This document shows positions 33,287 through 52,544 of a stretch of DNA of 54,905 bases, piece by piece. How positions within the stretch are numbered: position 1 is the stretch's first letter; each line of letters starts with the position of its first letter. The DNA lies in contig CAWDOY010000057.1 of assembly GCA_963803975.1 (NCBI GenBank), positions 1 through 54,905 on the forward strand, in the 5' to 3' direction. This DNA is from an uncultured delta proteobacterium. GTDB lineage: Bacteria; Desulfobacterota; WTBG01; CAIYCZ01. Both the position numbers and the translations under genes were made by a program. The notes under the pieces were generated by a model. That model did not search any database and was not told where the DNA came from. It saw only the letters and a program-made list of their open reading frames with translations.

Positions 33287-33407
33287 TGCGGCAATGAAGA
33301 ACCCTGAAGTAGGGGTGCAAACCACGGGCGCCTGCCCGTGCGTTAAAAAACATTGACAGTCAAACCGGCTGTCATCTATACAAACATAGTAAGAGGAGAA
33401 ACCAGCT

Positions 33408-34262
33408 ATGAAGAAAGCTCAATGTACGACCAGGCTCTGTTGTTTTATAGCGCTGACATTCAGCATCATGTTGTGTGGGTTTGTATCTCCGGGACATGCG
33501 GCCGGAGAGAAAACCATCATCCTGGCCACAACCACCAGCACCCAGGACTCGGGGCTTCTGGATGTGCTCATCCCCCTGTTTGAGAAAAAGGCCGGCTTTA
33601 TGGTAAAAACCATTGCCGTGGGTTCAGGCCAGGCCATGGCCATGGGCGAGCGCGGCGAGGCGGATGTGCTGCTGGTGCACTCCCCAGACGCGGAGAAAAA
33701 ATTCATGGATAAGGGTTTTGGCGGCAGCCGCCTGATCGTCATGCACAATGATTTTATAATTGTCGGTCCCGCTGCTGACCCGGCAAAAATAAAAGGAGTG
33801 ACGTCTGCTGCAGACGCCTTTAAAAAGATAGCTGAAACACAATCTCTTTTCATGTCCCGCGGCGATAATTCCGGCACCCACGCAAAAGAAAAGGCCATCT
33901 GGAAGGCAAGCGGCGTAACCTGTGCGGGGCAGAAGTGGTACCAGGAGACCGGCCTCGGCATGGGCCAGACCCTTGGCGTGGCTGCGGAGAAAAAGGGCTA
34001 TACCCTGGCAGACCGGGGAACGTATTTGTCCCTCAAAAACAAACTGGGGCTTGAGATACTCTGCGAGGGCGACAAGGCACTGCTGAATGTGTATCATGTC
34101 ATTGTGGTCAATCCCGCCAAATGGCCAAAGGTGAATACTGCCGGGGCCAGGGCATTTGCGAATTTTATGGTTTCTAAAGAAGCGCAGACAGTCATTAAGG
34201 AATTCGGCGTTGACCGGTTCGGCCAGCCTTTGTTTTTCCCTGATGCAGGTAAAAAAGAATAG
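33408..34262 (+). CDS. tupA: Tungstate ABC transporter substrate-binding protein
   Basis: Diagnostic ATTTSTQDSGLL motif, GSGQA, SRGDNSGTH and GMGQTL. Confidence 0.93.
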   Translation: MKKAQCTTRLCCFIALTFSIMLCGFVSPGHAAGEKTIILATTTSTQDSGLLDVLIPLFEKKAGFMVKTIAVGSGQAMAMGERGEADVLLVHSPDAEKKFMDKGFGGSRLIVMHNDFIIVGPAADPAKIKGVTSAADAFKKIAETQSLFMSRGDNSGTHAKEKAIWKASGVTCAGQKWYQETGLGMGQTLGVAAEKKGYTLADRGTYLSLKNKLGLEILCEGDKALLNVYHVIVVNPAKWPKVNTAGARAFANFMVSKEAQTVIKEFGVDRFGQPLFFPDAGKKE

Positions 34263-34563
34263 CAGGCTGTTGACCGGTTTCATGCCTCGCAATTCACGCT
34301 TTGTAAGCGGGGGAAGAGGCATGTAATTAAAAAAGAATAATTAAACTCCGGGAAGCCCCGCCTCGCAGGCGGGGAGCTTCAAAAATACCCATCTGCTCCG
34401 CTGTGCTACCCCCCCCTGCGTCCCCCCTTGGCAAGGGGGGATGAAGGGGGGGGTCATTGCGACGTACGGCATAGTACGCCTCATTCCTCAGGATTTCGCG
34501 CGCCTTGCATCCGGATATTTTTGACCAGCCTGGGGGAAGACTACTTTTTCAACAACCTGTTAG
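34260..34563 (+). mobile_element. MITE-like element with two nested insertions
   Basis: TIRs TAGCAGGCTGTTGA.../...TTTTTCAACAACCTGTTA. Colinear with the uninterrupted copy at 49270-49427 except for inserts at 34274-34381 and 34408-34452. Confidence 0.75.
34274..34381 (+). mobile_element. Non-autonomous IS200/IS605-like mini-element (PATE-like)
   Basis: Inserted 3' of TTGA with no target duplication. Two subterminal hairpins (cgctttgtaagcg; ccccgcctcgcaggcgggg); ends GGGGAGCTTCA. Confidence 0.55.
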
Positions 34564-34578
34564 CGGTGCATAATACTA

Positions 34579-35277
34579 GTGGACCTTATTGCTGAGGGCA
34601 TTCTCAAGGCGTTACTACTTCTCTTCACCCTGGACCCTGAAGTCCTGCGCATAACACTGCTCTCTCTTGCTGTGTCAGGGGCGGCAACGCTTATCAGTCT
34701 TGTCCTGGGGGTATCCCTGGGTTTCGCGATAGCCTTGTCGGAGTTTCGCGGTAAAAAGTTTGTCATCAGCACCATTAACACGGGCATGGGGCTGCCGCCC
34801 GTGGTTGTGGGCCTGTTTGTAACCATCTTTCTCTGGAGAAACGGGCCTTTCGGGTTTCTCGGGATTCTCTACACGCCGCTTGCAATGGTCATCGCCCAGA
34901 CCATCATCGCAGCGCCGCTGGTCATGGGTATAACCGTAGCCGCCATACAGCACCTGCCCCGAAACCTCCGCTATCAGATTCTCGCACTCGGCGCCACGCG
35001 CCTGCAGATGATGCGGCTGCTTGTGCGGGAGGCGCGGCTGCCGCTGCTTGCCGCGGTGATGGCCGGGTTCGGCGGCGTGATCTCCGAAGTCGGCGCCTCG
35101 ATCATGGTGGGCGGTAACATAAAAGGCTACACCCGGGTGCTCACCACCGCAACCGTCATGGAGACCAGCCGCGGCAACTTTGACATTGCCATAGCCCTGG
35201 GCATCATCCTCCTTGTCCTTTCATTTATCATCAATGCAATGCTCACCCATGTGCAGCAGCGGGAGCGGCCGCGATGA
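34579..35277 (+). CDS. tupB: Tungstate ABC transporter permease
   Basis: NTGMGLPPVVVGL and AGFGGVISEVGA-IMVGGNI-G-TRVLTTA. Confidence 0.93.
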   Translation: MDLIAEGILKALLLLFTLDPEVLRITLLSLAVSGAATLISLVLGVSLGFAIALSEFRGKKFVISTINTGMGLPPVVVGLFVTIFLWRNGPFGFLGILYTPLAMVIAQTIIAAPLVMGITVAAIQHLPRNLRYQILALGATRLQMMRLLVREARLPLLAAVMAGFGGVISEVGASIMVGGNIKGYTRVLTTATVMETSRGNFDIAIALGIILLVLSFIINAMLTHVQQRERPR

Positions 35278-36374
35278 ACAGCATAGAGGCCGATGCCGTA
35301 CTTCTGCAAGCCCGGGATATTCTGATACGCAGAGGCGGGGTTCCGGTTATAGATATTCCAGAGCTTGCCATAGAGCGCGGCAGGGTTGTTTCGCTCATCG
35401 GGCCCAATGGCGCGGGAAAGTCAACGCTGATGCTGGCGCTGGCATCTCTTCTGAAGCCGCACCAGGGCACTATCTATTTTCATGGACAGCCGGTTGACTC
35501 AGGAAATTCCCGGGCCGCATACCGCAGAAAGCTTGCCATGGTGTTCCAGGAGCCGCTTCTGTTTGACGCAACGGTTTTTGAGAATGTGGCGTCGGGGTTA
35601 AAAATCCGGGGCAGGAGCAGGGGAGAAATTAACCTGACCGTAGAGGAACAGCTGGCGCGGTTCGGCATCGGTCACCTTGCCCAGCGCTCAGCCCGCAAGC
35701 TGTCCGGCGGAGAAGCCCAGCGCACCAGCCTGGCGCGGGCCTTTGCCATCCGGCCGGAGATTATTTTTCTTGATGAGCCGTTTGCCTCACTTGACCCTCC
35801 CACCCGCGAGGCGCTGGTTGATGATCTGCACGCAATTTTGCGCCAGACCAGGACAACGGCGGTCATTGCGACCCATGACCGGATGGAGGCTTTGCGGCTA
35901 TCGGATATACTGGCGGTTATGTTCGGAGGAACTATCGTTCAGACCGGCACACCCGAGGAGGTAATGAATCGCCCCGCGGATGAGCAGGTGGCATCGTTTG
36001 TCGGGACAGAGACCATCCTGTCCGGCATCGTGACGCATGTTTATGACGGGACATTTGCGGTATCAATTGCAGGTACACTACCTTGAAGCGGTCGGTGTGT
36101 TAGAGAAGGTGAAGAGGTGGTGTGCTGCATACGGCCTGAACAGGTGACTATCTCCACTGATATGCCGACCGGCCACTCCAGCGCCCGCAACACCTTTACG
36201 GGCACCATCGTGAAGATTTCTCCCATGGGGCTGTTCTACCGGGTGTATCTTGACTGCGGATTTCCCCTGGTCTCTTATGTAACAACCCAGTCTTTGGAGA
36301 ACCTTGATCTGGGCGAGGGCAAAACAGTTGCTGCCTCTATCAAGGCAACGGCAGTCCATGTCATAAGAAAATAA
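35274..36374 (+). CDS. tupC: Tungstate ABC transporter ATP-binding protein with C-terminal TOBE domain (frameshift ~36080)
   Basis: GPNGAGKST, LSGGEAQR, LDEPF; SARN...IKATAVHV TOBE in ORF 36117..36374. Confidence 0.88.
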
Positions 36375-36481: not shown

Positions 36482-36509
36482 TTGACAAGAAGATTTTTAT
36501 TTATATGAT
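36482..36509 (+). promoter_or_regulatory. Sigma70 promoter upstream of tandem riboswitches 5-6
   Basis: TTGACA-16 nt-TATGAT. Confidence 0.6.
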
Positions 36510-36534
36510 GTTACACAAATTATTATTAATATTG

Positions 36535-36625
36535 TTCCCGAGCCGTATTTTCTAAAGCTTCTGCTATGAAAAGCGGCCGATGGGTATAAGTCGAAAGATT
36601 TAAGCCTCCCGTGTTTGGAAAGGGA
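36535..36625 (+). ncRNA. Moco-class riboswitch aptamer 5 (P3-less)
   Basis: TCCCGAGCC...TCTAAAGC-GCTATGA...GGCC...TCGAAAGA...GCCTCCCGTGTTTGGAAAGGGA. P1 covaries (TCCC/GGGA versus CTCC/GGAG). Confidence 0.88.
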
Positions 36626-36642
36626 TTATAGAATATAATTAT

Positions 36643-36685
36643 AAAGGCCAGCTTTCCACATGCGGAGGTTGCCTTTTTGTTTTTT
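36643..36685 (+). terminator. Riboswitch 5 terminator
   Basis: AAAGGCCAGCTTTCC/GGAGGTTGCCTTTTT imperfect stem plus U-tract. Confidence 0.7.
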
Positions 36686-36734
36686 AAAAAATGGTTACAT
36701 TATGAACTGCGTATAGCCAGATACCAGTATAAAT

Positions 36735-36823
36735 TCCCGAGTCGTATCTTCTACAGCTTCGCTATGAAAAGCGGCCAAAGGGTTTAAGTCGAAAGATTTA
36801 AGCCTCCCGTGTTCGGAAAGGGA
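36735..36823 (+). ncRNA. Moco-class riboswitch aptamer 6 (P3-less, tandem with 5)
   Basis: Near-duplicate of aptamer 5: TCCCGAG...GCTATGAAAAGCGGCC...TCGAAAGATTTAAGCCTCCCGTGTTCGGAAAGGGA. Confidence 0.88.
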
Positions 36824-36838
36824 TCACCGGCAATTGAT

Positions 36839-36877
36839 AAAGGCCAGCCTTTCCTTTGTGGAGGTTGGCCTTTTTTA
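36839..36877 (+). terminator. Riboswitch 6 terminator
   Basis: AAGGCCAGCCTTT/GGAGGTTGGCCTTTTTT. Confidence 0.8.
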
Positions 36878-37004
36878 TTACGTTAAAGGCAGGTTTATAA
36901 AACTTATTTTCGTTTTTCAATTAACAGAGAGGAGGTGCTTTTCAATTAACGGGGAGTATAAAAAAACACACAAAAAATGGTTTTTTAACAGGAGGGAACT
37001 ATTT

Positions 37005-38711
37005 ATGAAAAAAAGACTTTTACTGGGAAATTGTTTATTGCTTCTGGCATTGATGTTCGTGCCATTTGTCACTGCTCAAGCTGCCATCTTGCAGGTCGGA
37101 CCCAGCTGGCGGGAACCCCGTATGCAGATATTCAGAGCGCAATTACTGCAGCTGCTGACAATGATGAGATATGGGTGGAACAGGGAACCTATGCGCTTAC
37201 CGCCATGATAAATGTAAATAAAAAGGTGGCTATCTATGGCGGCTTTTACAGGTTCAGAAACAGCAAGGATCACAGAGGAACTGGGTAACCAACGTGACCA
37301 CGGTGGATGGCCAGAATACGGTCGGCTGTTTCTATACCACGGCAGATGCAACCATAGACGGGTTTACCATCACCAGAGGCTATAAAAAACTGGCAGGCGG
37401 TGATGAGGACAAGGGTGCCGGCATTCTGAACGGCGATCCTTCTCTCAGCTGCTCCTCCTGCTGATGCACCTGATCTCACGGTGGCAAACTGCATTTTCTA
37501 TCGCAACGAGTCCTTTCTGAAATCAGGCGGCGCATCTGTAACTTCACGAGCGCCGGGAACCTCACGATAACCGCAAGCACCTTTACTGAGAATTTTGGCG
37601 ATGAACAGGGCGGAGCAATCAGGGTGCAAAAGGGCACTACAACCATAACGGATTGCATCTTTACCGGTAACAAAATCAAAAAGGATACCGGCGGGGTTGG
37701 AGGTGCTATTGCTATCAGTAACACTGCCGGTGCAGCCGTCATTGAAAGATGCACATTTACCGGCAATAAATGCCGGGATGCCGGCGCAGTGAGCGCTGAT
37801 GTCAATGCTACTTTTACACGATGCATCTTTGCAAATAATAATCCAGTCATCGCAGCACCCCGCTACGGCACTATTGGATCCCGTGGAGACCTGCCCTGTC
37901 ACCGTAACAAACTGTCTCTTTTACGGCAACAGGGTTCAGTATGGCGGCGGCATTGCCATCAACGGCAGCGGCACCAATGAAAACTTAAATGTCATTAACT
38001 GCACATTTGCAGACAATATCCTTGTGGGTACCGGCGCTACCGGTGGTGCAATCTATTCCCTAAAGACCGGAGGAACAGCCTTCAATGTAACAAACTGTAT
38101 TCTGTGGGGAAATACTAACACAAATGAAATTGCCGGTGCTACCGGCTTTCTGGCTCCAACAGTAAGCTATACTGATACTGACCAGACCGGCTATGCCGGC
38201 AGCAATGGAAACATCAATCAGGATCCGCTGTTTGTCGATCCTATCAACTCTGATTTTCATATTCAGGGAATCTCGCCGTGCATCAGTAGCCGCAACCAGC
38301 ACCGGGGCACCCATTAATGACTTGGAAGGCACGCTGCGGCCCCAGGGTGTAGCCTTTGACATGGGCGCTTTTGAATATATTCTGGACCCGACCGCTATCA
38401 CCCTTTCCTCCTTTGATGCGAAGCCGGGCAATCACAGTGTAACGCTGATATGGGTAACCGAGACTGAGATTGACAATGCCGGGTTTAACATCTACCGGGC
38501 GGGTGCTGATGGCGAATTCGTGAAGATAAATGCTGAGATAATCCCTGCACAGGGAACCGCAGCAAGCGGAGCAGCCTATCAGTTTGTGGACAGCGACGTG
38601 CAGAACCGGCAGACCTATTCCTACAAGCTGGAGGATGTGGATCTGAACGGCACAGCAACCCAGTACGGGCCGAAAACGGCGACCCCACGGTTTATCTATT
38701 TATTTAAATAA
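37005..38711 (+). CDS. Secreted right-handed beta-helix (pectin lyase-like, choice-of-anchor Q-like) protein with C-terminal FN3-like domain; multiple frameshifts
   Basis: Signal peptide; YADIQSAI...WVEQGTY; repeated C-F--N...GGAI; NCILWGN; NINQDPLFVD...SPCI; DLEG--RPQG-AFDMGAFEY; C-terminal ...ATPRFIYLFK. Confidence 0.8.
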
Positions 38712-38772
38712 ACCGGGGCCGTTTCGCATTAATGTCCTATTCACGACTATTGACAGATAAGGAGATCATGCC

Positions 38773-38892
38773 ATGGAGCGAAAACATGAATACGAAGCAC
38801 CAAAAGTAATCACCTATTCAGAGGATGAGATAGTTGACATGCTCGGACCGGCGCAGACCTGTTCACCAAGCCCGTGTCCGACCTATCAGTAA
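38773..38892 (+). CDS. 39-aa RiPP-precursor-like peptide MERKHEYEAPKVITYSEDEIVDMLGPAQTCSPSPCPTYQ
   Basis: AAGGAG RBS 8 nt upstream, YxxPxV leader motif, Cys/Pro/Ser C-terminal segment, downstream hairpin. Below the ORF-track size cutoff. Confidence 0.7.
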   Translation: MERKHEYEAPKVITYSEDEIVDMLGPAQTCSPSPCPTYQ

Positions 38893-38924
38893 CATATACG
38901 ATTGACACATCGGGGAAACTACAT

Positions 38925-38974
38925 TAGTTAGAGTTATGCCCTATTCGCACATGGGTATAACTCTAACTATTTTT
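38925..38974 (+). terminator. Long hairpin/terminator after the peptide gene
   Basis: TAGTTAGAGTTATGCCC/GGGTATAACTCTAACTA 17-bp stem (one G-U) followed by TTTTT. Confidence 0.75.
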
Positions 38975-39019
38975 ATTGCAGAGGCATTTCTGTAATTAAT
39001 TCTCAAGACAGGGGGTTTT

Positions 39020-39990
39020 ATGAAGAAATATATACTACTATTGCTCATGCTATGTGCCGTGCTCTTTGCAGCACATAATGCTGCGGCTGAAACAATCAGC
39101 TGCAACGACCACCGCTGATGTTTTTATTGATCAGTACGAACCAACTATGAACTTCAATGATAAAACCAGATTGCTTATCTCATACCATCCTACAAAAGGC
39201 ATAGCACGGGGGCTTTTGAAATTCGACATCCCGTCTTGCATCACCGCTTCACAGATTCAAAGTGCCAATCTGTATCTGTCGAGCTCTGCTCATACTGGCA
39301 GTGGTAATGCTATTAATATTAGCATCCATGCACTCAATGCCTCCTTTAATGAGGCAACAGATACATGGAATAGCCTCAGCGGGGGTAACTATGATGCCAG
39401 CGTCTTCTCCTCAGGCTCTCTTCCTTCTGGCAATGCCTGGAAAACCACTATTAATGTAACAACACTTCTCGCGGGAAATCTGCATAAAGCACGAACTAAT
39501 GGTGTGCTCATTAAGCTGACTACGGAAGGACCGATAAATTATACCAGCATATTGCATCACGGGAATGCGATGATGCTTCTAACCCGAATTATGTTGCAGC
39601 TGACGAACCCCCACGTCTGGAGATTAGCCTGAAAACTGATTCTGATTCTGATGGGGATGGCGTTCTTGATTCACAGGATAATTGTCCCAATAAATGTAAT
39701 AGTGAGCAGCATGATTCAGATAATGATGGTTATGGGGATGTTTGTGACCCAACCCCCGGTTGTGCTTCTCCACCAAATTGCGGAGGATGTGGCTCACCAC
39801 AATGTTGTGAGGTAGAGTGCTCATTAACAGATTCTGATAGTGATGGTATTCCTGACTGTGCGGATAACTGCCCGTGCTAATTGCAACGTTAATCAAGCTT
39901 GATGCAGACGGCGATGGCATAGGTGATGTGTGCGATACAACACCAGGCTGCGGTGGATGCGGCGCACCGCAGTGTGAGCAGCAGTGTTAA
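39020..39990 (+). CDS. Secreted DNRLRE-like domain protein with thrombospondin type-3 repeats and Cys-rich tail (frameshifted)
   Basis: ATG 39020 signal peptide; ADVFID...ARGLLKFDIP...ASRE; DSDGDGVLDSQDNCP, DGIGDVCD; ends PGCGGCGAPQCEQQC. Confidence 0.75.
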
Positions 39991-40033
39991 TAGATAAACG
40001 AGGAGTAATTAATAAAGATAGTGAACAGATGAC

Positions 40034-43000
40034 ATGAAAAAATTGCTATCAATGCTGCTGTTTATTGCAGGGCTTTTGTTGCATAACGTTGCTGCAGCGG
40101 AAACGTATAACTGTGCTGCAACGGCTGATGTGTATATTGATCAGAAGACACCCGCGACAAATTTAAATGATAAAACCCGACTGGTTATTTCCTATCATCC
40201 CACGTATGGCATCGCCCGGGGGCTGTGGAAGTTTAACATCCCCGGCACCATCGACGCAGCGCAGATTGAGAGCGCAACGCTGCATGTATCCGGCTCTATT
40301 CATACCGGCGGGGGCAATGCCATTTCTGTATATTGTTATGCTCTCAATTCCCCGTTTGATGAAAATGCCGAAACCTGGAACACCCACAGTGGCGGAGACT
40401 ATGATGCCGGCGTGTTTTCTTCCGGTTCTCTTCCATCGGGCAATGACTGGGAAGCCGCCATCGATGTAACCACGCTGGCGAAAGGCAATCTGGCCAAACT
40501 GCGTGATAACGGCATGCTCATGAGGATACAGCAGGAAGGTCCGACCAAGGAATACCAGAACATAGCTTCCCGGGAATCTACTGACCCGGAAGATTTTGCC
40601 GCGTATCTTGAAATTGTGTATTCTGTCCCATCATCAACCACTACCACAATGCCGGTGAGCAGTTCCAGCTCGTCAAGCAGTTCGAGCTCATCTACCACAA
40701 CGGTGCAGCCAACTACGTCCAGCAGCACGTCATCGCTGATACCGACAACCACGACCACATTGCAGCCGACGACCTCAAGCAGCACCACGTCGATGATACC
40801 GACAACCACGACCACGGTGCAGCCGACAACGTCCAGCAGCACCACGTCGATCATGCCGACAACCACGACCACGGTGCAGCCGACAACATCCAGCAGCACC
40901 ACGTCGCTGATGCCGACAACCACGACCACGGTGCAGCCAACAACGTCCAGCAGCACCACGTCGATCATGCCGACAACCACGACCACGTTGCAACCGACAA
41001 CATCAAGCAGCACGTCGTCACTGGTGCCGACAACCACAACCACGGTGCAGCCGACTACGTCCAGCAGCTCAAGCTCGTCCAGCACTACAACGACCGCCAT
41101 CATCACGACAACCAGTTCAACTTCATCCACCACGACTATTGTTTATCAGTCGTATACGTGTGACTGTAACGGCTGATGTGTATATTGATGAGATTGATCC
41201 CGCACTAAATTTCAATGACAAGACGAGATTGCTTTTCTCATTCCATCCCACAAAGGGGAAAGCCAGGACGCTTTTGAAGTTTGATATCCCTATCAGCATC
41301 GAAGCACCGCAAATTCAAAGTGCAGTGCTGCATCTCTCAAGCTCCGGACATACTGGCGGAGGTAATGCTGTTTCTGTTAATAGCCATGCACTCAACTCGC
41401 CATTTGGTGAAAATGCTGAAACCTGGAACACCCACAATGGCGGCGATTATGATAGTTCCTTGTTTTCAACCGGCGCGTTGCCCGCAGGCAATGCCTGGAA
41501 AACTACCATTGATGTAACAACACTTCTCACGGTGAATCTGAACAAAATAAGGGATAATGGTATTCTTATTAAGCTGGCGGCTGAAGGGCCGGATAAATTA
41601 TACCAGAATATTGCATCACGGGAGTGCGATGATACTTCAAACCCCAATTATGTTGAAGCAGACGAACCTCCGCGTCTTGAAATTTACCTGTGCGGTTCCG
41701 GCATCTACGACAACTACGGGGCTGCCGATCAGCAGCTCAAGCTCTTCCAGCAGCTCAAGTTCATCAACCACAACGGTGCAGCCGGTAAGCAGTTCCAGTT
41801 CGTCCAGTAGTTCAAGCTCATCAACCACCACGGTGCAGCCGGTGAGCAGCTCAAGCTCGTCCAGCACTACAACGACCACCATCATCACGACGACCAGTTC
41901 AACTTCATCCACTACGACTATTGTTTATCAGTCCTATACGTGCGACACGACCGCTGATGTTTATATTGATCAGGAGTCACCGACGACAAATTTCAATGAT
42001 AAAACCCGACTGCTTATTTCCTATCATCCGACAAAAGGCGCGGCCCGGGGGCTGTGGAAGTTTAACATTCCCGGCACCATCAACGCAGCACAGATCCAGA
42101 GCGCAACGCTGCATGTGTCAGGCTCTATCCATACCGGCGGGGGTACGGCCCTTTCTGTATATTGTTATGCTCTTAATTCCCCGTTTGCTGAAAATGCCGA
42201 AACCTGGAATACCCACAGTGGCGGAGACTATGATACCGGCGTATTTTCTTCCGGGTCCCTTCCATCTGGCAATGACTGGGAAGCGGCCGTTGATGTAACC
42301 ACGCTGGCGAAAGGCAATCTGGCCAAACTGCGGAATAACGGCATGCTCATGAAGAAACAGCAGGAGGGCCCGACCAAGGAATACCAGAACATAGCCTCCC
42401 GGGAAACTACTGACCCGGAAGATTTTGTCGCGTATCTGAAGATTGTCATTGCCTCAGCCGGAACCACGACAACAACGGCTACAAGCACAACATCGACGAT
42501 ATCGGTAACAACCAGCACAACCTCTGTTCCGGCAGTCACCACAACCACGATTCCGTTGCCTCCACCAGAATGTAATGCTGACGCTGACTGTGATGATGAG
42601 AAGTTTTGCAATGGGGCGGAACGATGTGTTCTGGGGCAGTGCCTTGCAGGAGATAGCCCCTGCAGCGAGGGGCAGGTATGCCGCGAAGATCTTAAACAGT
42701 GCCTCAGCATACTGAGAGTATCAGCTCGTTGTATTCCGCAAAGGGTCTTAAGGCCCTGGCTGCGCGATACCCGGTGTTTTTGGTTGCTGGTGTATTGTCC
42801 TGTAGGAAGCCATGTCAATTCACAGAGCACAATAATGATAACCGGGCCGGAAACACAGGCCGCAGGGGTAAAAGTGAATGAACAGCGGCAGTTGGTGAAT
42901 ATGGCCGGAATGCTCTGGGTGCCGGTGTGCGTGAAGTCTGATGCAACTACTGGCGCATGGAAGTTAAGTATTTCTACCGATGCAGATATCAGCGGAACGA

Positions 43001-43041
43001 TGGTTAATGAGGTGATTGAAGCTGATTTTACCGTGAGATAG
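40034..43041 (+). CDS. Secreted protein with three DNRLRE-like domains, Ser/Thr-rich linkers and a Cys-rich C-terminal module (two frameshifts)
   Basis: ORFs 40034, 41139 and 41557 join. Domains 1 and 3 are nearly identical. CNADADCDDEKFCNGAERC module. Confidence 0.8.
40695..41075 (+). repeat. 57-bp coding tandem repeat (about 6-7 copies; PTTTTTVQPTTSSSTTSIM)
   Basis: Visible 3-nt shift per 60-nt line gives period 57. Confidence 0.9.
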
Positions 43042-43080
43042 TATTAGTAAATAATATTATCAACATAAAGGACCTCTCAG

Positions 43081-44822
43081 ATGAAAAGAAAAATAATACT
43101 TGGACTTTGCCTTCTCTTTTTGTTGTTACTTCCTTACACAGTGAAGGCAGAAACAATTATTCTTTCCACTGATAAGGATACCTATATAGATAAGTATTAC
43201 CCTGCTCAGAACTTTGGACAGAAATGGAATGTGCTGGTCAGCGGCTCTCCAGTTTCAAAACTGGCTAATGGGTTATTCCACTTTGATTTTACTGCTCTTC
43301 CTGATACCGCGGTCATTAAAAATGCGAAATTAACGTTTCTTGTCCATGCCAATCATTCAACAACAAAGTATTTTATCCACCCTTGACAACTTTCTGGCAG
43401 GAAGATGCTGCTACATGGAATCTGTCTGAAACCGGAATAAATTGGGGGACACCCGGCGGAGATTATGACCCGGCTCTTTTTTGTGAAACCGCTCTGCCGG
43501 GAACAACGCCACAGTGGAGTGTGACGGACGTTACCTCCCTTGTCAGTGACCAGCAGGGTTATCTAAGACAAGGCATTGCTGATAATGGACTTTTGATACG
43601 GGGAGACGCAGGATACAATAAAATTCTCTCGTCCGAGTTCAGCACCTATGACAACGCCATGACCTGCCACTCCTGCCATGGAACAAATGACCCTTCGCGC
43701 GACGTGGGCAAGTCAACAAACTGCGCTCAGTGCCACTCGCAGGGTGATATTCGACTTGCAGGAGAGCCGACACTGATCGTCGACTATGAGCCCATGCTGT
43801 TTGAGTTTGTGCAGGTATCGGATACTCATATAGGGAAATCACCTCAGCAGACAACTAATCTTATCAATGCAGTAACGCAGATAAATACCATAAACCCCGC
43901 ATTTGTGCTTTTCAGCGGAGACCTGACCGACAGCGGAAGCATTGAACAATATACCACCTTTAAAACAACGGTCTCTAATCTCTCAATGCCCTATTACTGT
44001 GTGCCGGGAGATAATGATATTGTTGACGGCGAGGGTGACTTGCAGCGCTACCGTGACCAATTGGGTAATGATTATTTTGCTCTTGATTACCAGGGTTTTA
44101 AATTTATCGGGCTCAATAACAACCTGTACCTTTCCCTTGATCAGACTCAGCGTCAATGGTTTGAGCAAGAGCTTCAGAAGGGGAAACCTGAAATTATTTT
44201 TGCCCATAAGCCGCTTCTGGATTATGAAAACAACTTTGTGCCTTTTGCCGACGCACAACAGTTGTTAAATCTTTTTGATGCTTATGATGTGGTTATGTAT
44301 ATGAGTGGTCATTGGCATGAGTCAGCAGAATATACCAGCAATAACACGCACCATATCTGGTGCGATAATTTAAGTTTTGCCCACCTGGGAGACCGGTATA
44401 ACCTTTACCGGGTATATGCAGACCACATCGCGCTCTATCATGTGGACTTGCGCGATGGTTCTGAGACTTTTGCAGGTAGTTTTCCCATAAACCGGGCATC
44501 TACCCTTGTTACATTATCATCTTTGCAGGCAATACCTTCAAATCGCAACGTTACCATACGCTGGGTTACCGAGTCTGAGATAGATAATGCAGGCTTTAAT
44601 ATTTACCGCACCACAACGAATGGTGAGACCGTCAAATTAAATAAAAATATGATTGCGGCACAGGGATCCGCAGCAGCCGGGGTGGTATATGAATTTGCGG
44701 ATACCACGGTTGAAAACCGCAAGACATATTCATACCAGCTGGAAGACATTGACATAAACGGTATGGCGCGATTACATGGGCCGGTAACAGCGACGCCGCG
44801 GCTTCTGTACATATTTAAATGA
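43081..44822 (+). CDS. Secreted DNRLRE-like + diheme + calcineurin-like metallophosphoesterase + FN3-like C-terminal domain protein (frameshift ~43383)
   Basis: DKDTYID; CHSCH and CAQCH; SDTH, GDLT, PGDND, AHKP and SGHWH; ...ATPRLLYIFK. Confidence 0.8.
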
Positions 44823-44832
44823 GAGGGTACCA

Positions 44833-46414
44833 GTGAAAAATAATTGCTGCTGGCGCGGCAAAACAGTGACGGGAACTGCGCTGCTGCTCTCTCTCTTGTT
44901 TCTCTCTGGATTTTTCGGCTGTACGCCATTTTCAGATGATGCTCAGGTTCAGGTAGCTACTGCTGTTAATGAGTTTAAGCCCTTTTCTTCGCCGCCCCGC
45001 GCTGTTGCCTGCGGCCCCTATTCGCTGAACGTGAAGACTGACAGCGCGGTTATCGCCTGGGAAGAAAAAATCTTGGGTGATACCCTGCGGCATGTAGAGG
45101 TGTCCGGTTTCCGGGCTTTCAGCGGGGACAGAATATGTTTACCGGGTTAATGGCGCTAAAAAAGATGGCCGCCTGGTAACCGCCCCCGCAGACGCTACAC
45201 CCTTCAGTTTTTTTATTGTGAGTGATACGCGCGGCGGTGCCGCAATAGCCAGCCAAATCTCAGAACAGATGATTGCCCTTGATCCTGAGGCCGCATTTGT
45301 TATCCATGCCGGGGACATGGTAATGGATCAGGACAGCCAGGAAAGCTGGCAGGCTGACTGGTGGATCCCGCTGTCAGACCTTCTGCTTAATTTTTCAGTG
45401 TATCCTGTCATGGGTAATCACGAGGAGGGCTCTGCCTGGTATCCCCGCTACTTTTCAAGCCTTGGCGGGAAAGGAATTAACTATTCATTTAACCGGGGGC
45501 GGGTCCATGTCGTGGTCCTGGACGTAAATCAGGAAAGCTTCATCACCGGGGAATTTCTGGAGTGGCTTACCAATGACCTGCAAGAACACCGGGATGCTGA
45601 TTTCATTGTGGTCTGCCATCATCTGCCGGCGTATGCGGCTAATCCGGACGGTGATAGCGGCACCGGTTATATTCAGGACAAACTGGTGCCGCTCTATGAG
45701 CAGTACGGGGTCAAACTGGTGCTGAGCGGCGACGTGCACTGCTATCAGCATAACCTGAAAAATAATATCCACTACCTCATTTCCGCAGGCGGCGGCTCAC
45801 GGCTCTATGACCACGGGCTCCCGCTTGAAGGCATGACCCTGGGCTTGTCTAAGAGCTACAACTTCATCCGTTGCCGGGTGCAGGATAGATTGATGCAGGT
45901 CACTGCCCATGATATTGCCGGTGATGTGCTTGATAACTTTGAGCTTGCTGCAGACAGTTCCTCCGAGATTACCGCCCGGATCATCGCTCAGTCAGACAAG
46001 TCCGAGGTGCAGCGGGGTGAGCAATTCAGGACTGATTTTTTTATCGAAGGCGCGGCTGACCTGGATACGGTTTCTTTCACCCTGGAATACTATAAAGACA
46101 CACCGCCCAATGCCCTGCTTACGGTCGTGGATGCAGAGCCCCTGACTGAAGGAGTGCAGATCGAGGAAGGATTGCTGGGCGGCGTGGTGACCGCCAATAG
46201 TGCGGATAACACCAAAGGAATAATTACCTATGGAGAAGACAGAATAGGCGGCCTTTCCGCTTCTAAAGTAAAGGTTGCCTCAATACTGTTTACCGTGCCG
46301 GAAGATGAACCGATCACAGCATTCTATCTTGTTCCAAAATTTTTTCTGCATGACACATCCGGCAGAGAAATTCCCAGCTTTATGGGTGGAGTCAAGGTCA
46401 CCATAAAAAAGTAA
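44833..46414 (+). CDS. Purple acid phosphatase-like metallophosphoesterase lipoprotein with cohesin-like C-terminal domain (frameshifted)
   Basis: Lipoprotein-like signal (LSGFFGC); GPY...VIAWE; SDTR, HAGDMV, MGNHE, CHHLP, SGDVHCYQ and SAGGG. Confidence 0.75.
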
Positions 46415-46432
46415 ATAATCCGGATCAGCGCA

Positions 46433-48115
46433 ATGATTGACATAATGAGATCTAAAAACAGCTGGAAACATATTGCCGGCAGCCTGCTGCTCGCAGGATG
46501 TCTGCTTCTGAGCTTCGCCGGTCTTCCCGGCGCTGCAACCTATCAGTGTGTCCAGGATACCTATATTGACACCGCATACCCGGATGATAATTTCGGCGGC
46601 GGCGACCGCCTGCTTATCTCCAACACCGCCAATCCTACCCGCGTATTGATGAAATTCGCCATTCCCTCGTGGGTCGATACCGCAAACATCAGGCAGGGAT
46701 CACTGGTTTTCTACAGTGCGCCGTGGACCGGCGGCGCAGGCGGCACCGTTGATTTTGACGTGTATGCTCTGACCCGTATATGGACGGAAGGGTTTCCTGA
46801 TAACGGCGCTACCTGGAACCAGTATACTTTTGATACGGACCGAAGAAAAAACCAGTGGACCAGCCCGGGCGGAGATTATGATGAAAGCCTGCATGCAGCG
46901 GGCACGTTTCCCTCAGGCAATGACTGGGGACCTTTTTCCATTGATGTAACTGAATTGTTAAAAAAACGGCTGAGCAATCTGCGCGACTATGGTTTTCTGG
47001 TCAGGCACCCGCGTGAAGATGCGGCGGGAGGCTGGCAGAATTTTGCGAGCAGGGATTCAACCGGGTATGACCCGCCCCGGTATCCGCAACTGGAAATAGA
47101 GTTTATTGAGCCCCCGCCGAACACACCGCCTGATGCACCAGCAAGTCCCGCGCCGGGTAACAATGAAACCGGCGTGCTGCTGACCCCGACGCTAAGCTGG
47201 AGCGGAGGCGACCCGGACCCGGACAATACCCTGACCTATGATGTGTACTTCGGCCTTAAGGGAGCGCTGACCCTTGTCTCTTCCGGCCAGGTAGCGGCCA
47301 CATATCTGCCCGGCGCGCTGCAGCTTGCTGCCACCTATGAATGGAAGGTGGTTGCCCGGGATAATTACGGCGCTGAAACTTCCGGCCCGATGTGGAGCTT
47401 CAGTACCATTACGAGCGGCATAGCATCAGTTTCCCCGGCAAGCGGGTCGCCTTTCTATTTTCAGGATAAAAACTATTTTCCCCGTCCTGTTCTGATGAAT
47501 ATCAAGGGCGCAGGGACCGCCTTCCGGTTTTCGCAGTCAAAAGTTTCATTCAATGATGAAGGTATCAGGGTCCTGTTCTGCCTGCCGGTTTCGCCGACCG
47601 AGCTGTGGGCAGCAGTAATTATTGAGGAAACAGCACTACTCGGCCTGCATGATGTTATTGTTACCACCGGAGAAGAAACAGCAGTCGGCATCGCGCTCTT
47701 CGAGGTTAAAAAATGCTGGCGCGGTACTGAACAGATAACCGTGAAGCACAATGCTGATTCTGCGGCAGTGCAGCTGCGCGGGCTGCCCATGTACAGCTTC
47801 AAGAACAAGGAATCGATTCGTTTTTCGGACATCGTTGAAAAAGCCGGCATCCCCGCCCATCCTGAAAACTATTTTTACAACCTCATATCAAATGATAATT
47901 ATTCCCTGGAACGGGGTATAATCCTCGGCGGCTGGTCAACAGGACTGCCTACCTGGGCGGACATGCAAAAAGGGTATCTCTATCTCACAAAATCGTCCGG
48001 TCTGCTTGCCGGATGGGACCCTGAGACGGTACCGGGACGAATCGGGAGCAGTTACAATGCGAAATTCATGGAAGGAGGCATAATTGAAGTTCGGGAACAG
48101 GATATCATCAAGTAA
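46433..48115 (+). CDS. Secreted DNRLRE-like + FN3-like multidomain protein
   Basis: Signal peptide; QDTYID...GGDYD...NFASRD...PQLEI; PTLSWSGGDPD...YDVYFG...YEWKVVARD. Confidence 0.8.
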   Translation: MIDIMRSKNSWKHIAGSLLLAGCLLLSFAGLPGAATYQCVQDTYIDTAYPDDNFGGGDRLLISNTANPTRVLMKFAIPSWVDTANIRQGSLVFYSAPWTGGAGGTVDFDVYALTRIWTEGFPDNGATWNQYTFDTDRRKNQWTSPGGDYDESLHAAGTFPSGNDWGPFSIDVTELLKKRLSNLRDYGFLVRHPREDAAGGWQNFASRDSTGYDPPRYPQLEIEFIEPPPNTPPDAPASPAPGNNETGVLLTPTLSWSGGDPDPDNTLTYDVYFGLKGALTLVSSGQVAATYLPGALQLAATYEWKVVARDNYGAETSGPMWSFSTITSGIASVSPASGSPFYFQDKNYFPRPVLMNIKGAGTAFRFSQSKVSFNDEGIRVLFCLPVSPTELWAAVIIEETALLGLHDVIVTTGEETAVGIALFEVKKCWRGTEQITVKHNADSAAVQLRGLPMYSFKNKESIRFSDIVEKAGIPAHPENYFYNLISNDNYSLERGIILGGWSTGLPTWADMQKGYLYLTKSSGLLAGWDPETVPGRIGSSYNAKFMEGGIIEVREQDIIK

Positions 48116-49148
48116 AGAGCTGAGAAAAAATACCCGGCGCACGGGAGGTTTTTTATTAATCCTCGTCACGCTGTGCGTACTGTTGCACAGCGGCGCTGCA
48201 CAGGCGGAAAAGATAATCTGCCCGGCTGCGGCTGATGTATATATCGATGAATGGTACCCGGATGAGAATTTTAATTATAAGACACGGGTGGTGGTTGCAA
48301 CCAACAAGAATATCCACCATGGAATAGCACGGGGGCTATATTATTTTGATATTCCTGCCGACCTGGCGGCCGCCCGGATCAAGAGCGCAGCTATCTATCT
48401 TGCTTCATGCACAAACTGCGGCGGCGGCAACGGCGGAGTGGTGGGCTTTTATGCCCTGAATAAGCCGTTTGATGAGGCAGCTGATACCTGGAGCTCGCTG
48501 GAAGGAGGGGATTGGGATAATTCCATATATACACAGGCAACTCTCCCCAAGGGAAATGACTGGAACCAGGGGGTGAGTGGTCAACTTCCCCCGGATGCAA
48601 AGGGCTTTGATATTACCGTCCTCCTCCGGGACAACCTGAACAAGGTACGGACTAACGGCATCATGATGCGGTTTGTTGACGAGCACCAGGAACCATTCAC
48701 CCACCAGAACGTTGCCTCACGGGAGTCGCAGGACCCGCTTGATTTCCCTCCCCAGATAATAATTCAAACAGAGGAGCCGCTCTGCCCGGCAGAGGTCATG
48801 CTCGGAGAGGACCGGCAGGCACTTTCCCTGCTGCGGAAGTTCCGCGACCAAGAGCTCGCAAAAACTCCTGCGGGCAGAAAGTGCATTGCGCTCTATTACC
48901 GCCATGCTGCTGAAATCTCTACCCTGCTGGTCACTGATGAGGATTTAAGAAGGAAGACCTCCGCGGCGCTGCCGGTTCTGCTGGCAGCTGTCAGGTGCAG
49001 ACTTGAAAAGCGCCCGGCCGGTAATCTCCGCGATATGGATACTGCCCTCCATAATCTAATTAATTCGTTTATGGTAAAAGCCGGCCCGCAGCTGCGAAAG
49101 GATATTGCTGCCATAAACGCCGCCCTTTTTGCTGCAAAGGGACCGTGA
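48084..49148 (+). CDS. Secreted DNRLRE-like protein with CFI-box-CTERM-like C-terminal domain (start approximate)
   Basis: ADVYID...ARGLYYFDIP...QNVASRE; CPAE...LRKFRD-EL--TPAG--CI-LYY. Confidence 0.75.
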   Translation: MKFGNRISSSKELRKNTRRTGGFLLILVTLCVLLHSGAAQAEKIICPAAADVYIDEWYPDENFNYKTRVVVATNKNIHHGIARGLYYFDIPADLAAARIKSAAIYLASCTNCGGGNGGVVGFYALNKPFDEAADTWSSLEGGDWDNSIYTQATLPKGNDWNQGVSGQLPPDAKGFDITVLLRDNLNKVRTNGIMMRFVDEHQEPFTHQNVASRESQDPLDFPPQIIIQTEEPLCPAEVMLGEDRQALSLLRKFRDQELAKTPAGRKCIALYYRHAAEISTLLVTDEDLRRKTSAALPVLLAAVRCRLEKRPAGNLRDMDTALHNLINSFMVKAGPQLRKDIAAINAALFAAKGP

Positions 49149-49269: not shown

Positions 49270-49427
49270 CTAACAGGTTGTTGAAAAAGTAATCTTTTAC
49301 AGGCTGGTCAAAAACATCCAGATGCAAGGCACGCGAAATCCTGAGGAATGAGTCGTACTTTCTGGTACGTCGCAATGACGAAGGATGAGCGCAACGCAGC
49401 AGATGGGTGTTTTTCAACAGCCTGATA
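49270..49427 (-). mobile_element. MITE-like element, uninterrupted copy
   Basis: TIRs TAACAGGTTGTTGAAAAA / TTTTTCAACAGCCTGATA; homologous to the 34260-34563 and 10347-10412 copies. Confidence 0.75.
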
Positions 49428-49448
49428 ATGTAAAAGGAATGTACTGCC

Positions 49449-50174
49449 ATGCGCGTTTACGTTGGTTTTGATGATACGGACACGGTTGATGCTGACCGCG
49501 GCACCGGAAAACTGGCCCGCTGGTTTGAACAAGAACTCCCCGAAGGCTGCACCCTTTGGGGCGTGGTGCGCCAGCAGCTTCTGGTGGACCCGGCCATTCC
49601 CTACACCTCCCACAACAGTTCAGCCTGCGCCGTGGTAGAAGTACCCGATTCTTCCTACACTAAAATACTTATTGGGAAGGCCGCTGAACACATTAAGCGG
49701 TTTTTTATTTCCGGCAGCGATCCGGGGCTTTGTGTTGCCGCAGATGGTAACGGGTCTTTTGCAAGGCTCATTTCATTCGGCAAACTGTGCGCAACCAGTA
49801 TCGTTTCGCAGAAAGCTGCTCTGCAGGCTGCCGCCGGAGTACATCTTTCCGGTCATGGCGGCACCAATGACGGTATTATCGGTGCTGCAGCAGGAGTTGG
49901 ATTGACTGCTTCGGGCTGGAGCGGCAGGTTTATTGAGTTTAAACGGCTGCGTGATTTGCCCGAGCTGGTCCGTGTCGCTGATTTAGAGCAGGCAGGCATC
50001 GTCGTGGTATCAGTCGACCGCGATGCGCCAATGCCGGGGCCGGACGACATGGTGGAAACCAAGGGGATGGCTGCGGCCGCGGCTCTGGGGCGCTCGTCCG
50101 ACTTTGCCGGTGACGGCTGCAGAAAAGAACCTGTGGCACGCGCTGGCCCAAGAAAAACGCAGGGACAAAAATAA
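49449..50174 (+). CDS. TiaS-N/DUF1743-like protein (3' end approximate, frameshifted)
   Basis: VGFDDTD...RGTGKLAR, RQQLLVDP-IPYTSHNSSAC, SDPGLC and GTNDGIIGAAAGVGL. Confidence 0.7.
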   Translation: MRVYVGFDDTDTVDADRGTGKLARWFEQELPEGCTLWGVVRQQLLVDPAIPYTSHNSSACAVVEVPDSSYTKILIGKAAEHIKRFFISGSDPGLCVAADGNGSFARLISFGKLCATSIVSQKAALQAAAGVHLSGHGGTNDGIIGAAAGVGLTASGWSGRFIEFKRLRDLPELVRVADLEQAGIVVVSVDRDAPMPGPDDMVETKGMAAAAALGRSSDFAGDGCRKEPVARAGPRKTQGQK

Positions 50175-50189
50175 ACAGGAGGACTATCC

Positions 50190-50411
50190 ATGGCAGCAAA
50201 AATATTTTACCGGGAACGAGTGAAAATCGGCGAAGGTGATAAGCAGCCCCGATTTAAACTGGTTGCCATTGCAGGCATTGATATGAAACTCTACGGCAAG
50301 CATTTACGCAAGAGCGAACTTAAGCAGATTGCAGATGCAATCGGCGCTGAACTGGTTTTGCTTAAGGGTGGGGACAAGAAAAAGGGCGAAGACGTTTCTG
50401 TGGGTGATTGA
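50190..50411 (+). CDS. Small hypothetical protein
   Basis: Strong RBS AGGAGG, 73 aa, operon context. Confidence 0.7.
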   Translation: MAAKIFYRERVKIGEGDKQPRFKLVAIAGIDMKLYGKHLRKSELKQIADAIGAELVLLKGGDKKKGEDVSVGD

Positions 50412-50467
50412 GCGGGCGCAGGCATCGTATAGTTTATACATAACCCGTATATAGAGAGACATACTGT

Positions 50468-51297
50468 ATGGCACTGCTTCGGGACCGTGACGGTCGTCGT
50501 TTACATGTAAAAAGCAGGCTGATGGGGGAAAGCCTGGTCAGCAGGAAGCTCATCGAAACCCTCGAAATAGCGCCGCAGCAGCGGCTTTTCCCGGATGTGA
50601 CAATTTTAAAGATCGGCGGTCAGTCTATCTGCGACCGCGGGAAAAAAGCGCTGCCGGGTGTCATCAGGGAAATAGCTGCGAACAAGAAAAAGCACAAGAT
50701 GCTGCTGGTGACCGGAGGCGGGACGCGCAGCCGTCACATCTATGCCATAGGCTTAGAGCTTGGCATGCCCACCGGGGTCATCGCCAAGTTCGGCAGTTCC
50801 ATCTCTGAACAGAACGCGCTTTTGGTTTCCATGCTGCTTTCACCCTGGGGCGGGATCAAGATCGGCCATGACGAGATAGTTAAGCTACCGACATATTTTA
50901 CTCAAGGGTGCATTCCGGTCATGCACGGCATGCCGCCCTATGACTATTTTGCCATCCCTCCTGCAAAAGGACGGATACCTATCCACCGGACAGACGTGGG
51001 TACCATTATCCTTGCCGACCTGATCGGCGCAAAGAATTGTATATTTGTTAAAGATGAAAAGGGGCTGTACACCGATGACCCCAAGAAAAACCCTAAAGCT
51101 GTGTTTATTCCCCGGATCGGGGTAAAAGAGCTTTTAAAAAAGATCTGGACGATCTCATCATAGAGCGGCCCTGCCTTGAAATTTTACAGAACAGTGAAGT
51201 TATAAAACAGATTCAAATCATTAACGGTCTTGAGAAAGGAGCCATAACAAAAGCTCTCAACGGAGAGAAGGTGGGAACTGTTATTTATAAGGAATAA
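50468..51297 (+). CDS. Molybdenum storage protein (MosA/MosB)-like, amino-acid kinase fold (frameshift near 3' end)
   Basis: LMGESL, KIGGQSICDRG, TGGGTRSRH, EQNA, GMPPY, IP-HRTD, KDEKGLYT-DP, DLIIER and INGL--G...GE-VGT-I. Confidence 0.8.
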
Positions 51298-51474: not shown

Positions 51475-52544
51475 TCACAACCATTTCCGTTTTCTGAAAA
51501 AATAGAGCATGAAGCAAGCGACTGATATCATTATGGTAAGAACAAACGGATACCCCCATTGCCATTCCAGCTCAGGCATATATTTGAAATTCATCCCATA
51601 GAGGCCGGCGAGAAAGGTGAGGGGGATAAAAATAGTGGCGATAATGGTCAAAACTTTCATCACCTGGTTCAGCCGGTTGCTGAGCGATGAAAGATAGATA
51701 TCAAGCATGCTGGAAAGCATTTCCCTGAACGTCTCAATGGTATCTATGATCTGCACCACATGATCATAAATATCCCGCAGATAAATCTCTGTTGACTCTT
51801 TTATCAAGTCTGATTCCCGCTTCGCGAGCGCGGCAACGACTTCGCGCAGGGGCCAGATGCAGCGTCTGTATATAGAGCATCTCCCGTTTGAAATAGTGTA
51901 TTTTTTGCAGGGTTTCCGGTTTGGGGTCGGTAACAACTTCTTCTTCAAGAAGCTCGATCTGCTCCCCCAGCTTCTCAAGAACGGCAAAGTAATTATCCAC
52001 TATGCCGTCCAGCATTGGAATAGGCAAGATAATCAGCCCCCATTTTGCGTATCTTTCCCTTGCTGCCCCTGATGCGCTGCCGCAGCGGCTCAAACACATC
52101 ACCCTTGATCCCCTCCTGGAACGAAAAAACAAAGTTGTTCCCGAGGATGAGGCTCACCTGCTCGGACACGATATCAGTGCCCTGGTCGTTGTAGTGGAGC
52201 ATTTTGAGAACTATAAAGATATAATTCTCCATGTCATCAATTTTGGGACGCTGGTCACTGTTCAGGATATCTTCCAGGGTCAGCGGATGAATTTCATAAC
52301 ATGCCCCCAGCTTTTCAATGAGATGTATATCATGAATGCCCTCAAGATTAATCCAGGTGACCGTGGGCTTGTCTTTTAATAAAAAGCATTCTTCGATCTT
52401 GTGCAGCGTTTCTTCCCGCAGCTCAGTTTCACTGTAGTCAATGACCGTGACCCCGGTGATATCCACGGTCTTTTCCCCGATGTGCACGAGCGTGCCCGGC
52501 GCCATCCAGGCCTTTTTTGAGCGCTTTTTGGTATATCGTTTCAT
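51475..52544 (-). CDS. corA: Magnesium/cobalt transporter CorA (frameshifted)
   Basis: HPLTLEDI--QRPK, EQVS, YLRDIYDH and LYGMNFKYMPEL-W-WGYP. Confidence 0.93.

Follow-up and report, generated by a model that had tools for sequence, protein, structure and literature searches.

The subject of this study is a cassette of eight genes, g1 to g8, on contig CAWDOY010000057.1 of an uncultured member of the Desulfobacterota; the window that we analyzed is this complete contig of 54.9 kb, and the genome from which it derives (G000) comprises 4.25 Mb and is rated 98% complete. The genes all lie on the forward strand, 3' of a tandem leader (36482 to 36876) that carries two riboswitches of the molybdenum (Mo)/tungsten (W) cofactor class RF01055, and their number and shared orientation are as given in the original prediction, a reading of the sequence alone that had proposed a surface apparatus induced by cofactor starvation. 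That prediction also placed signal peptides on all products except the short peptide g2; judged by eye on the translations, they were agreed upon, and g6 has a lipobox Cys. Other genomes of the same uncultured class (G001 and onward; 42 genomes in all) and fetched loci designated by L numbers, most of those cited here being metagenome loci, were used for comparison. A description of the cassette was not found in the literature searched; PMC2996986, PMC13260240, and PMC13119186 contained nothing on it.

The leader opens with a predicted sigma70-like promoter at 36482 to 36509 (TTGACA-16-TATGAT; 11 of 12 positions matching), the one marked in the original prediction, which was the best of 18 sites in a scan where 20.1 were expected by chance, the region thus not being enriched in such sites; the TTGACA box (-35) also stands 5' of the aptamer in L102 and L105. 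The two near-duplicate aptamers with terminators that had been seen by eye were recovered with the Rfam model: aptamer 1 (36524 to 36641) scored 72.9 bits and aptamer 2 (36723 to 36839) scored 60.8 bits, both above the gathering score of 36 bits and both aligned to model positions 1 to 135. Columns of stem P3 are gapped in the two alignments, which assigns both aptamers to the tungsten (Tuco) subtype by the criterion of Regulski et al. (2008; PMC2408646), in which absence of P3 is the mark of that subtype and tandem copies are already reported. Directly 3' of each aptamer are a hairpin and a T-run, predicted to be intrinsic terminators 1 (36643 to 36679) and 2 (36839 to 36876), both with an antiterminator option; over aptamer and terminator, copies 1 and 2 are identical at 137 of 159 aligned bases. 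A duplex between the aptamer 3' core and the terminator as strong as the native one (-24.6 kcal/mol for copy 1 and -21.5 kcal/mol for copy 2) arose in 0 of 1,000 shuffles for copy 1 and 11 of 1,000 for copy 2, and in 1 of 1,000 for each of the orthologous leaders of L102 and L105. Because the 3' core can pair with the terminator instead, we infer a platform of mutually exclusive terminator and antiterminator, predicted to be of the OFF type, which would terminate transcription with ligand bound. Rfam assigns ten aptamers of this class to G000, six of them to the window. The tandem arrangement was considered as a special feature and rejected: a second pair lies in the window at 14480/14675, L102 has a single aptamer at this position, and tandems are reported in PMC2408646.

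Genes of Mo and W metabolism are the usual company of these switches in the class. When about 60 candidates per genome were scored and the first gene was labeled by blastx against our own marker set, itself partly built from these loci, a gene for Mo/W cofactor synthesis, uptake, or a Mo/W enzyme came first after 105 of 121 aptamers: moaA in 24 cases, a porin gene in 22, a xanthine-dehydrogenase-family gene in 16, tupA, modA, and AOR in 9 each, a moeA-like gene in 7, formate dehydrogenase and a methyltransferase-moeA pair in 2 each, and, in 5, a gene that we take to be molybdo-aldehyde oxidoreductase-like. The remaining 16 include three before beta-propeller genes, three before hydrogenase small-subunit genes, and the two of the present leader. 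In a platform survey of 126 aptamers (four metagenome loci added; a motif filter skipped some leaders), a terminator with an antiterminator was found in all four cassette leaders and before 21/25 porin, 20/24 moaA, 6/9 tupA, 7/9 modA, 13/16 xanthine-dehydrogenase-family, and 0/9 AOR genes. In E. limosum, limitation for W led to up-regulation of terminator-type, P3-less switches, two of which control iron transporters (PMC11725836), so that RF01055 targets outside the textbook set have precedent. G000 has 31 AFOR_N matches, the highest count among the 42 genomes, and the W demand of the lineage is therefore likely to be high. The number of AOR-family genes was nevertheless rejected as a predictor of the cassette, being a weak one (medians of 21 in carriers and 15 in noncarriers; P = 0.12, with kin not independent).

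Several further observations concern these switches. Three more aptamers, with a tandem among them, precede methyltransferase/moeA-like/modABC genes and a xanthine-dehydrogenase-family cluster with yqeB, yqeC, and xdhC at 9324 to 26173 of the window; being P3-less and apparently OFF-type, they are suggestive of a Mo enzyme that serves during W shortage. In three genomes (L202, L213, and L223), RF01055 directly precedes genes for the small subunit of [NiFe]-hydrogenase. A second RF01055-led exported set, composed of beta-propeller-like repeat arrays that share their tails and peptide with the cassette, occurs in G000 (C38, 21650 to 28100) and at L237 (G008, C31); in G008 the peptide gene and three beta-propeller-like repeat genes come immediately after the aptamer, and in G005 a related gene follows a TonB-dependent receptor gene in the operon of GEGP, a diheme protein described below.

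The association of the cassette with W and Mo genes extends to its relatives. In the window it follows a unit at 29416 to 36374 (forward strand) consisting of an RF01055 aptamer, a phosphate-porin-family porin, the GEGP diheme protein, a 134-amino-acid protein, and tupA-like, tupB, and tupC genes, and it precedes a trio at 49449 to 51163 (forward strand) encoding a TiaS-N-like protein (weak match), a 73-amino-acid protein, and a homologue of the molybdenum storage protein MosB (E = 7.7e-53); the early placement of the cassette between tupABC and a Mo-storage-like gene was therefore sound. The porin-tup unit forms one operon with the cassette in relatives, and the same trio lies 3' of the cassette in G001, G002, G030, G036, and L102. 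Eleven of the 42 class genomes carry the cassette by the DNRLRE profile, and the same 11 were found by the g6 orthologue at E < 1e-85. Among the ten besides G000, eight have it adjoining W/Mo genes, one copy is unlinked (G012), and one is too fragmented to judge (G018). In G030 and G036, a single contig reads aptamer, tupA, aptamer, porin, GEGP, small protein, cassette, TiaS-like, small protein, Mos, tupB, and tupC, and opposite-strand genes were not seen in G036. In G022, of the same genus, one aptamer is followed by tupA, porin, GEGP, and the cassette, with g8, tupB, and tupC on a second contig. The locus ends in the Mos trio in G001 and G002, and the cassette abuts tupA in G024. In G014 and G020, which with G018 represent another genus, it lies behind a TonB-dependent receptor, g7C (the unnamed domain of g7), and TonB; GEGP and tupABC are divergent from it, and a regulator gene of the helix-turn-helix (HTH)-PBP type stands at the far end. 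Of the 22 loci returned by a metagenome scan with the DNRLRE-diheme alignment, an aptamer, tup, porin, GEGP, or Mos is present in 7 and the HTH-PBP gene in another 3, whereas the remaining 12 end inside the cassette. L102 reproduces the gene order of the window with a single aptamer; in L105 and L106 a promoter, aptamer, and terminator lie about 160 bases before the start of g5 with no beta-helix or peptide gene between; and in L079, L114, and L116, g8 runs directly into tupBC. Rfam confirmed aptamers in five of nine loci submitted. Homologues of the cassette genes thus stand beside tup, mod, GEGP-diheme, Mos, and RF01055 elements in several gene orders, the co-occurrence for which the original prediction had called. 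A regulator with HTH_17 and PBP_like domains (L051, 1417 to 2325; L105, 365 to 1279) flanks the cassette in G014, G020, L097, L099, L100, L105, and L106, where it may act in place of the riboswitch or in addition to it.

We conclude that the cassette very probably belongs to the W/Mo (RF01055) regulon. Going further, we consider, at a probability of about 0.55, that it specifies a surface stage, induced by cofactor starvation, that would capture or free tungstate (or molybdate) for the porin and TupABC. The corresponding idea in the original prediction stands insofar as the genes belong with W/Mo acquisition by linkage and the switch has OFF-type architecture; its inclusion of the beta-helix protein and the peptide does not, since both appear to be accessory: in G022, G030, and G036, the operons led by the riboswitch yielded neither.

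Eight genes are present, as had been predicted, but g1, g3, g4, g5, and g6 are not intact open reading frames here. The breaks look like assembly errors, because contigs of run X1 are one base shorter at each of 39107, 41163, and 45103 (among the 12 of 44 indel differences listed, which also include some in tupC), relatives of g5 at 89 to 94% identity are whole proteins of 577 to 579 amino acids, and orthologues are whole: those of the cassette in G022 and G036 are intact, and g1 of L102 is a whole protein of 566 amino acids. We counted g4 as a single gene that contains two frame breaks; X1 supports the first of these, and the second is inferred only. One raw DNA run placed no reads. Two metatranscriptome contig sets covered 26 to 27 of 30 bins, too thinly and at too low an identity (mostly 90 to 95%) to bear on expression, and the RNA runs X19 and X20 yielded only scattered contigs.

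The first two genes differ in character from the rest. g1 (37005 to 38711, forward strand; several indels) encodes an exported right-handed beta-helix that contains a choice-of-anchor-Q-like segment and ends in a generic FN3-like tail, and it has close orthologues in G002, G014, G018, and G020; its assignment as a PL6 lyase was rejected as too weak, the sole match of the profile having an E value of 4.4e-4 over 83 positions. g2 (38773 to 38892, forward strand) encodes a 39-amino-acid peptide resembling precursors of ribosomally synthesized and posttranslationally modified peptides (RiPPs) and is one of eight near-identical copies in G000; the others lie on contigs C20 (four), C38, C3, and C15, and five of the eight immediately follow a gene whose product has the FN3-like tail at its end. 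Peptides of this type occur in 14 of 42 class genomes, in up to 10 copies, and, of the ten cassette genomes other than G000, six yielded none; with this distribution, the peptide was rejected as a W-specific product. Precursors of lasso peptides and other RiPPs that depend on a RiPP recognition element (RRE) have PqqD/RRE and maturase genes adjacent, and the lasso ring requires an acidic core residue. No maturase gene adjoins g2, G000 has five PqqD matches, none of them on the window contig and the nearest to any copy of the peptide about 76 kb away, and the g2 core has no Asp or Glu.

Between g2 and g3, a 17-bp hairpin followed by a T-run (38925 to 38977, forward strand; 75-nucleotide fold, -27.4 kcal/mol) may be a partial terminator or an mRNA stabilizer. 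The hairpin itself is real and is kept in L102, so that g3 to g8 need read-through here unless a promoter has gone undetected. This feature is the basis of an alternative in which the riboswitch controls g1 and g2 alone and the remaining genes are ordinary surface proteins with a promoter of their own, passengers of a Mo/W island, to which the unlinked copy in G012 and the fetched loci of G014 and G020, lacking an aptamer, lend some weight. We regard this as very unlikely: the W/Mo link is kept across at least four gene orders, the aptamer of L105 directly precedes g5, no promoter-like site was found in the scan on the forward strand between 38384 and 43026, and the DNRLRE subfamily of the cassette occurs nowhere else in G000.

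The core cassette comprises a DNRLRE-diheme protein, a phosphatase/cohesin-like lipoprotein, a His/Cys-bearing DNRLRE protein, and the unnamed domain g7C. NF033679 and a profile search bore out the predicted count of seven DNRLRE domains in five genes, with three in g4 and one each in g3, g5, g7, and g8; six score 39.1 to 75.6 bits against a cutoff of 34, and the split fragment of g5 scores 31.3. g3 (39020 to 39990; indels) joins its domain to an Asp/Cys-rich TSP3-like tail, and g4 (40034 to 43041) has its three domains spaced by Thr/Ser linkers before a Cys-rich tail; HP[TSG] and H[TS]GGG are kept in domains of the g3/g4 type. g8 (48084 to 49148) carries a variant with a CFI-box-like tail, in which HHG is conserved in 49 and CxxCGG in 47 of 51 homologues. 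g5 (43081 to 44822; frame break near 43383) encodes a DNRLRE domain with two CxxCH motifs near its C-terminal end, a metallophosphoesterase of GDND-variant type, and an FN3-like tail, in agreement with the earlier description of a diheme metallophosphoesterase. The two motifs are inserted just before the last strand of the DNRLRE domain, in a part of the fold model that has low confidence, and are invariant in nine of nine aligned sequences; the insert is a candidate c-type cytochrome module in an exported protein. With seven candidates per genome scored, a full DNRLRE-diheme match outside the class was absent from a sample of 401 genomes of the phylum, the only matches being in G000 and G022. 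g7 (46433 to 48115) consists of DNRLRE, FN3-like, and Ig-like domains followed by the 134-amino-acid domain g7C (47711 to 48112); these five genes are all on the forward strand. A search of 1.84 billion representatives gave 72 relatives of g7C at E <= 0.001, of which many are exported repeat proteins. The domain corresponds to no curated family: Pfam gave nothing, PF00174 was absent from the 72 homologues, the best match in a PDB profile search was at chance level (E = 0.15), and the best in an Atlas search (0.88) was unnamed. Outside the cassette, its homologues adjoin modA (G034 and G022), tupA (G006), or a TonB-dependent receptor gene.

Since the fold of the g5 domain, modeled on its G001 orthologue, resembles modules that bind polyanionic glycans, a role in adhesion must be weighed. 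The model aligns with 8WAB (Z = 9.8; root mean square deviation, 3.5; 144 residues) and 7VBO (Z = 9.4; 3.4; 143 residues), which are a chondroitin-sulfate-binding and an alginate-binding module, respectively (PMC9971899). Foldseek returned nothing for the model at E <= 0.001, and 7VBO gave no sequence match at E <= 1, which precluded a direct mapping of its binding residues. Cofactor shortage might then be only a cue for a switch of lifestyle or substrate, with the proteins acting as glycan-binding adhesins or in matrix foraging and handling no metal. The generic C-terminal tails would suit such a role: they vary between orthologues and are common genome-wide (47 FN3-like and 27 CFI-like tblastn hits in G000), for which reason they were rejected as W-specific. 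The same is true of the class aptamers that precede genes with no obvious Mo/W function, namely, the hydrogenase small subunits and beta-propeller arrays. Against it, the cassette is set between tupA and tupBC, with a Mo storage gene behind it; the eight genes have no detected glycoside hydrolase or lyase domain; and the diheme insert, the HHG and CxxC motifs, and the altered dimetal sites are alien to the solved glycan-binding modules. We therefore consider this explanation improbable and prefer tungstate capture.

The dimetal sites in question belong to two phosphoesterase domains. That of g5 has GpdQ as its best PDB match (2ZO9; E = 6.7e-6), and PGDND occupies the position of the PGNHD of GpdQ in 29 of 29 close homologues. 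With GDND in place of GNH(D/E), the catalytic His is lost, and hydrolysis by the g5 domain is doubtful. g6 (44833 to 46414, forward strand; frame break at 45103) is a lipoprotein with a domain like that of purple acid phosphatases (PAPs), as had been predicted (best PDB match in the 1KBP family; E = 8e-5), and a cohesin-like domain. The PAP motifs are GNH(D/E), a VxxH-type motif, the Tyr of GDxxY, and GHxH, and tungstate binds PAP dimetal sites. In eight aligned orthologues of g6, GNH and H141 are invariant (GNHE in six, as in g6, and GNHD in two), the Tyr ligand is absent from all, and the last motif is GDxH in six and GHxH in two. The C-terminal domain of g6 is weakly cohesin-like (PF00963 in 2 of 14 members, best E = 0.0045; scaffoldin match in PDB, E = 0.85). 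Dockerin PF00404 was found on orthologues from G036 (26.6 bits; cutoff, 22.9), a dockerin motif scan was positive for 3 of 20 sequences, and none was found in the window by that scan.

A third alternative involves GEGP (NF041762; 31012 to 32856). Toward its C terminus lies a region that resembles sulfite-oxidase-type domains with a probability of 90% (E = 1.4e-6; reversed-sequence control, 0.13%) and is without the Mo-ligand Cys, and Cys-less domains of this fold bind pterins, as described for PruR (PMC11194511). The cassette might accordingly salvage pterin cofactor from lysed cells, with sulfite-oxidase-fold domains holding the pterin, phosphoesterases stripping the nucleotide or phosphate, and the metal or the pterin being imported; the retained GNHE/GNHD of g6 and the TonB-dependent receptor that leads into the cassette in G014, G018, G020, and L099 are consistent with this. 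We hold it to be unlikely nonetheless. G000 has its own moaA and moaC, which makes salvage less necessary; the inner-membrane transporter of the operon is TupABC, an oxyanion importer; g7C resembles sulfite-oxidase-type domains at probabilities of only 11% and 4% (hhalign with a four-sequence profile) and GEGP at 0.2%; and GEGP is not a member of the cassette and, in many genomes of the phylum, is present where the cassette is not, being above the cutoff in 25 of 401, often beside porin or tupA.

Three other features of the neighborhood were observed. A multicopy intergenic element at 49274 to 49430, 34453 to 34559, and 10347 to 10410 has 96 blastn hits in G000. Near-duplicate blocks of corA and a KamA-like gene (51475 to 53990 in the window; 19500 to 21523 on contig C38 of G000) lie beside both riboswitch-led surface-protein loci. 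A gene on the reverse strand at 26600 to 28977, divergent from the porin aptamer, specifies an exported protein of BNR repeats that also has the FN3-like tail.

We propose that tungstate capture at the surface would proceed as follows. When W cofactor is low, the aptamer core would pair with the terminator and the unit would be read; the proteins would then be displayed outside the cell, with the lipoprotein g6 as a possible anchor. CBM96-fold domains might fasten onto anionic matrix or particles, and the variants that bear His, Arg, and Cys may be binders of the oxyanion itself. Reduction or loosening of sorbed metal may fall to the diheme insert. At the g5 dimetal site, which has lost its catalytic His, the oxyanion could be trapped with no hydrolysis of substrate, and g6 could cleave phosphate esters. 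Freed tungstate would pass through the porin to TupA, with any surplus going to the MosB homologue. The steps of binding and release are the weakest of this scheme; the chemistry of capture is suggested by the fold, the conserved His, Cys, and heme motifs, and the altered dimetal sites. In its most specific form, the proposal is of an extracellular, lipoprotein-anchored tungsten-mining complex in which glycan-module folds, one of them diheme, have become oxyanion binders and supply the porin and TupABC with W set free from particles or cofactor remnants; we put this form forward tentatively, as somewhat doubtful.

A number of points weigh against tungstate capture. All characterized relatives of the DNRLRE domains bind glycans, and the g5 fold model has a mean pLDDT of 58, falling below 50 in the heme insert. 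The hairpin at 38925 could end transcription before g3 in G000. Genes of the xanthine dehydrogenase family have OFF-type platforms as well, in 13 of 16 cases, as given above, so that an OFF switch alone does not mean uptake. The 31 of 42 class genomes without the cassette all carry AOR-family genes, and the counts differ little. The cassette of G012 lies on a 33-kb contig in which no aptamer or W/Mo marker was found (Rfam over 20 kb; aptamer profile and tblastn over the whole contig). Finally, G022, G030, and G036 are of one genus, and several of the metagenome loci are near-duplicates.

The acquisition of W by anaerobes at stages before TupA is poorly described, and no outer-surface stage was found in the literature searched. 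The cassette offers small soluble domains for study, namely, the DNRLRE-diheme and His/Cys DNRLRE domains, the GDND phosphoesterase, and g7C; if these bind tungstate, the RF01055 regulon would be extended, the DNRLRE family would acquire a nonglycan role, and candidate W/Mo-selective binders would become available.

In comparison with known systems, the switch is an ordinary member of RF01055, and the transport and storage genes are of known kinds. In its above-threshold score, P3-less subtype, terminator platform, and tandem copies, the leader resembles the class described by Regulski et al. (PMC2408646), whose reported targets are cofactor synthesis, transport, and Mo/W enzymes, whereas those here are exported DNRLRE, diheme, and phosphoesterase proteins. 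The neighboring GEGP, like PruR (PMC11194511), has an exported Cys-less region of the same fold family, but it adds two hemes and sits outside the cassette; for g7C, a match to this fold has only the low probabilities given above. The cassette shares its operon or locus with tupABC, the porin, and the MosB homologue; TupABC, ModABC, and the MoSto protein of Azotobacter (PDB 2OGX), however, take up or store free oxyanion, and extracellular capture proteins belonging to these systems were not found in the literature searched. Six of its seven DNRLRE domains pass NF033679, and the modeled one has the same beta-sandwich fold as CBM96 (7VBO) and the 8WAB module (Z = 9.4 to 9.8), from which the cassette differs in having no lyase or hydrolase partner domain and in its diheme insert and HHG/CxxC or HP[TSG]/HTGGG motifs. 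The phosphoesterases of g5 and g6 share the calcineurin-like dimetal fold of PAPs (1KBP) and GpdQ (2ZO9); in contrast to these, g6 and its orthologues are without the Tyr ligand and show GDxH in most cases, and g5 has GDND for GNHD. On the evidence of sequence and gene context, the cassette is a real and conserved accessory module of the W/Mo regulon, undescribed in the literature searched. BtuG is a riboswitch-controlled surface capture protein for vitamin B12 in Bacteroides and concerns another nutrient, with other domains and another transporter. The likeness lies in cofactor-repressed surface proteins encoded beside an outer-membrane transporter, an analogy of logic that implies no homology.

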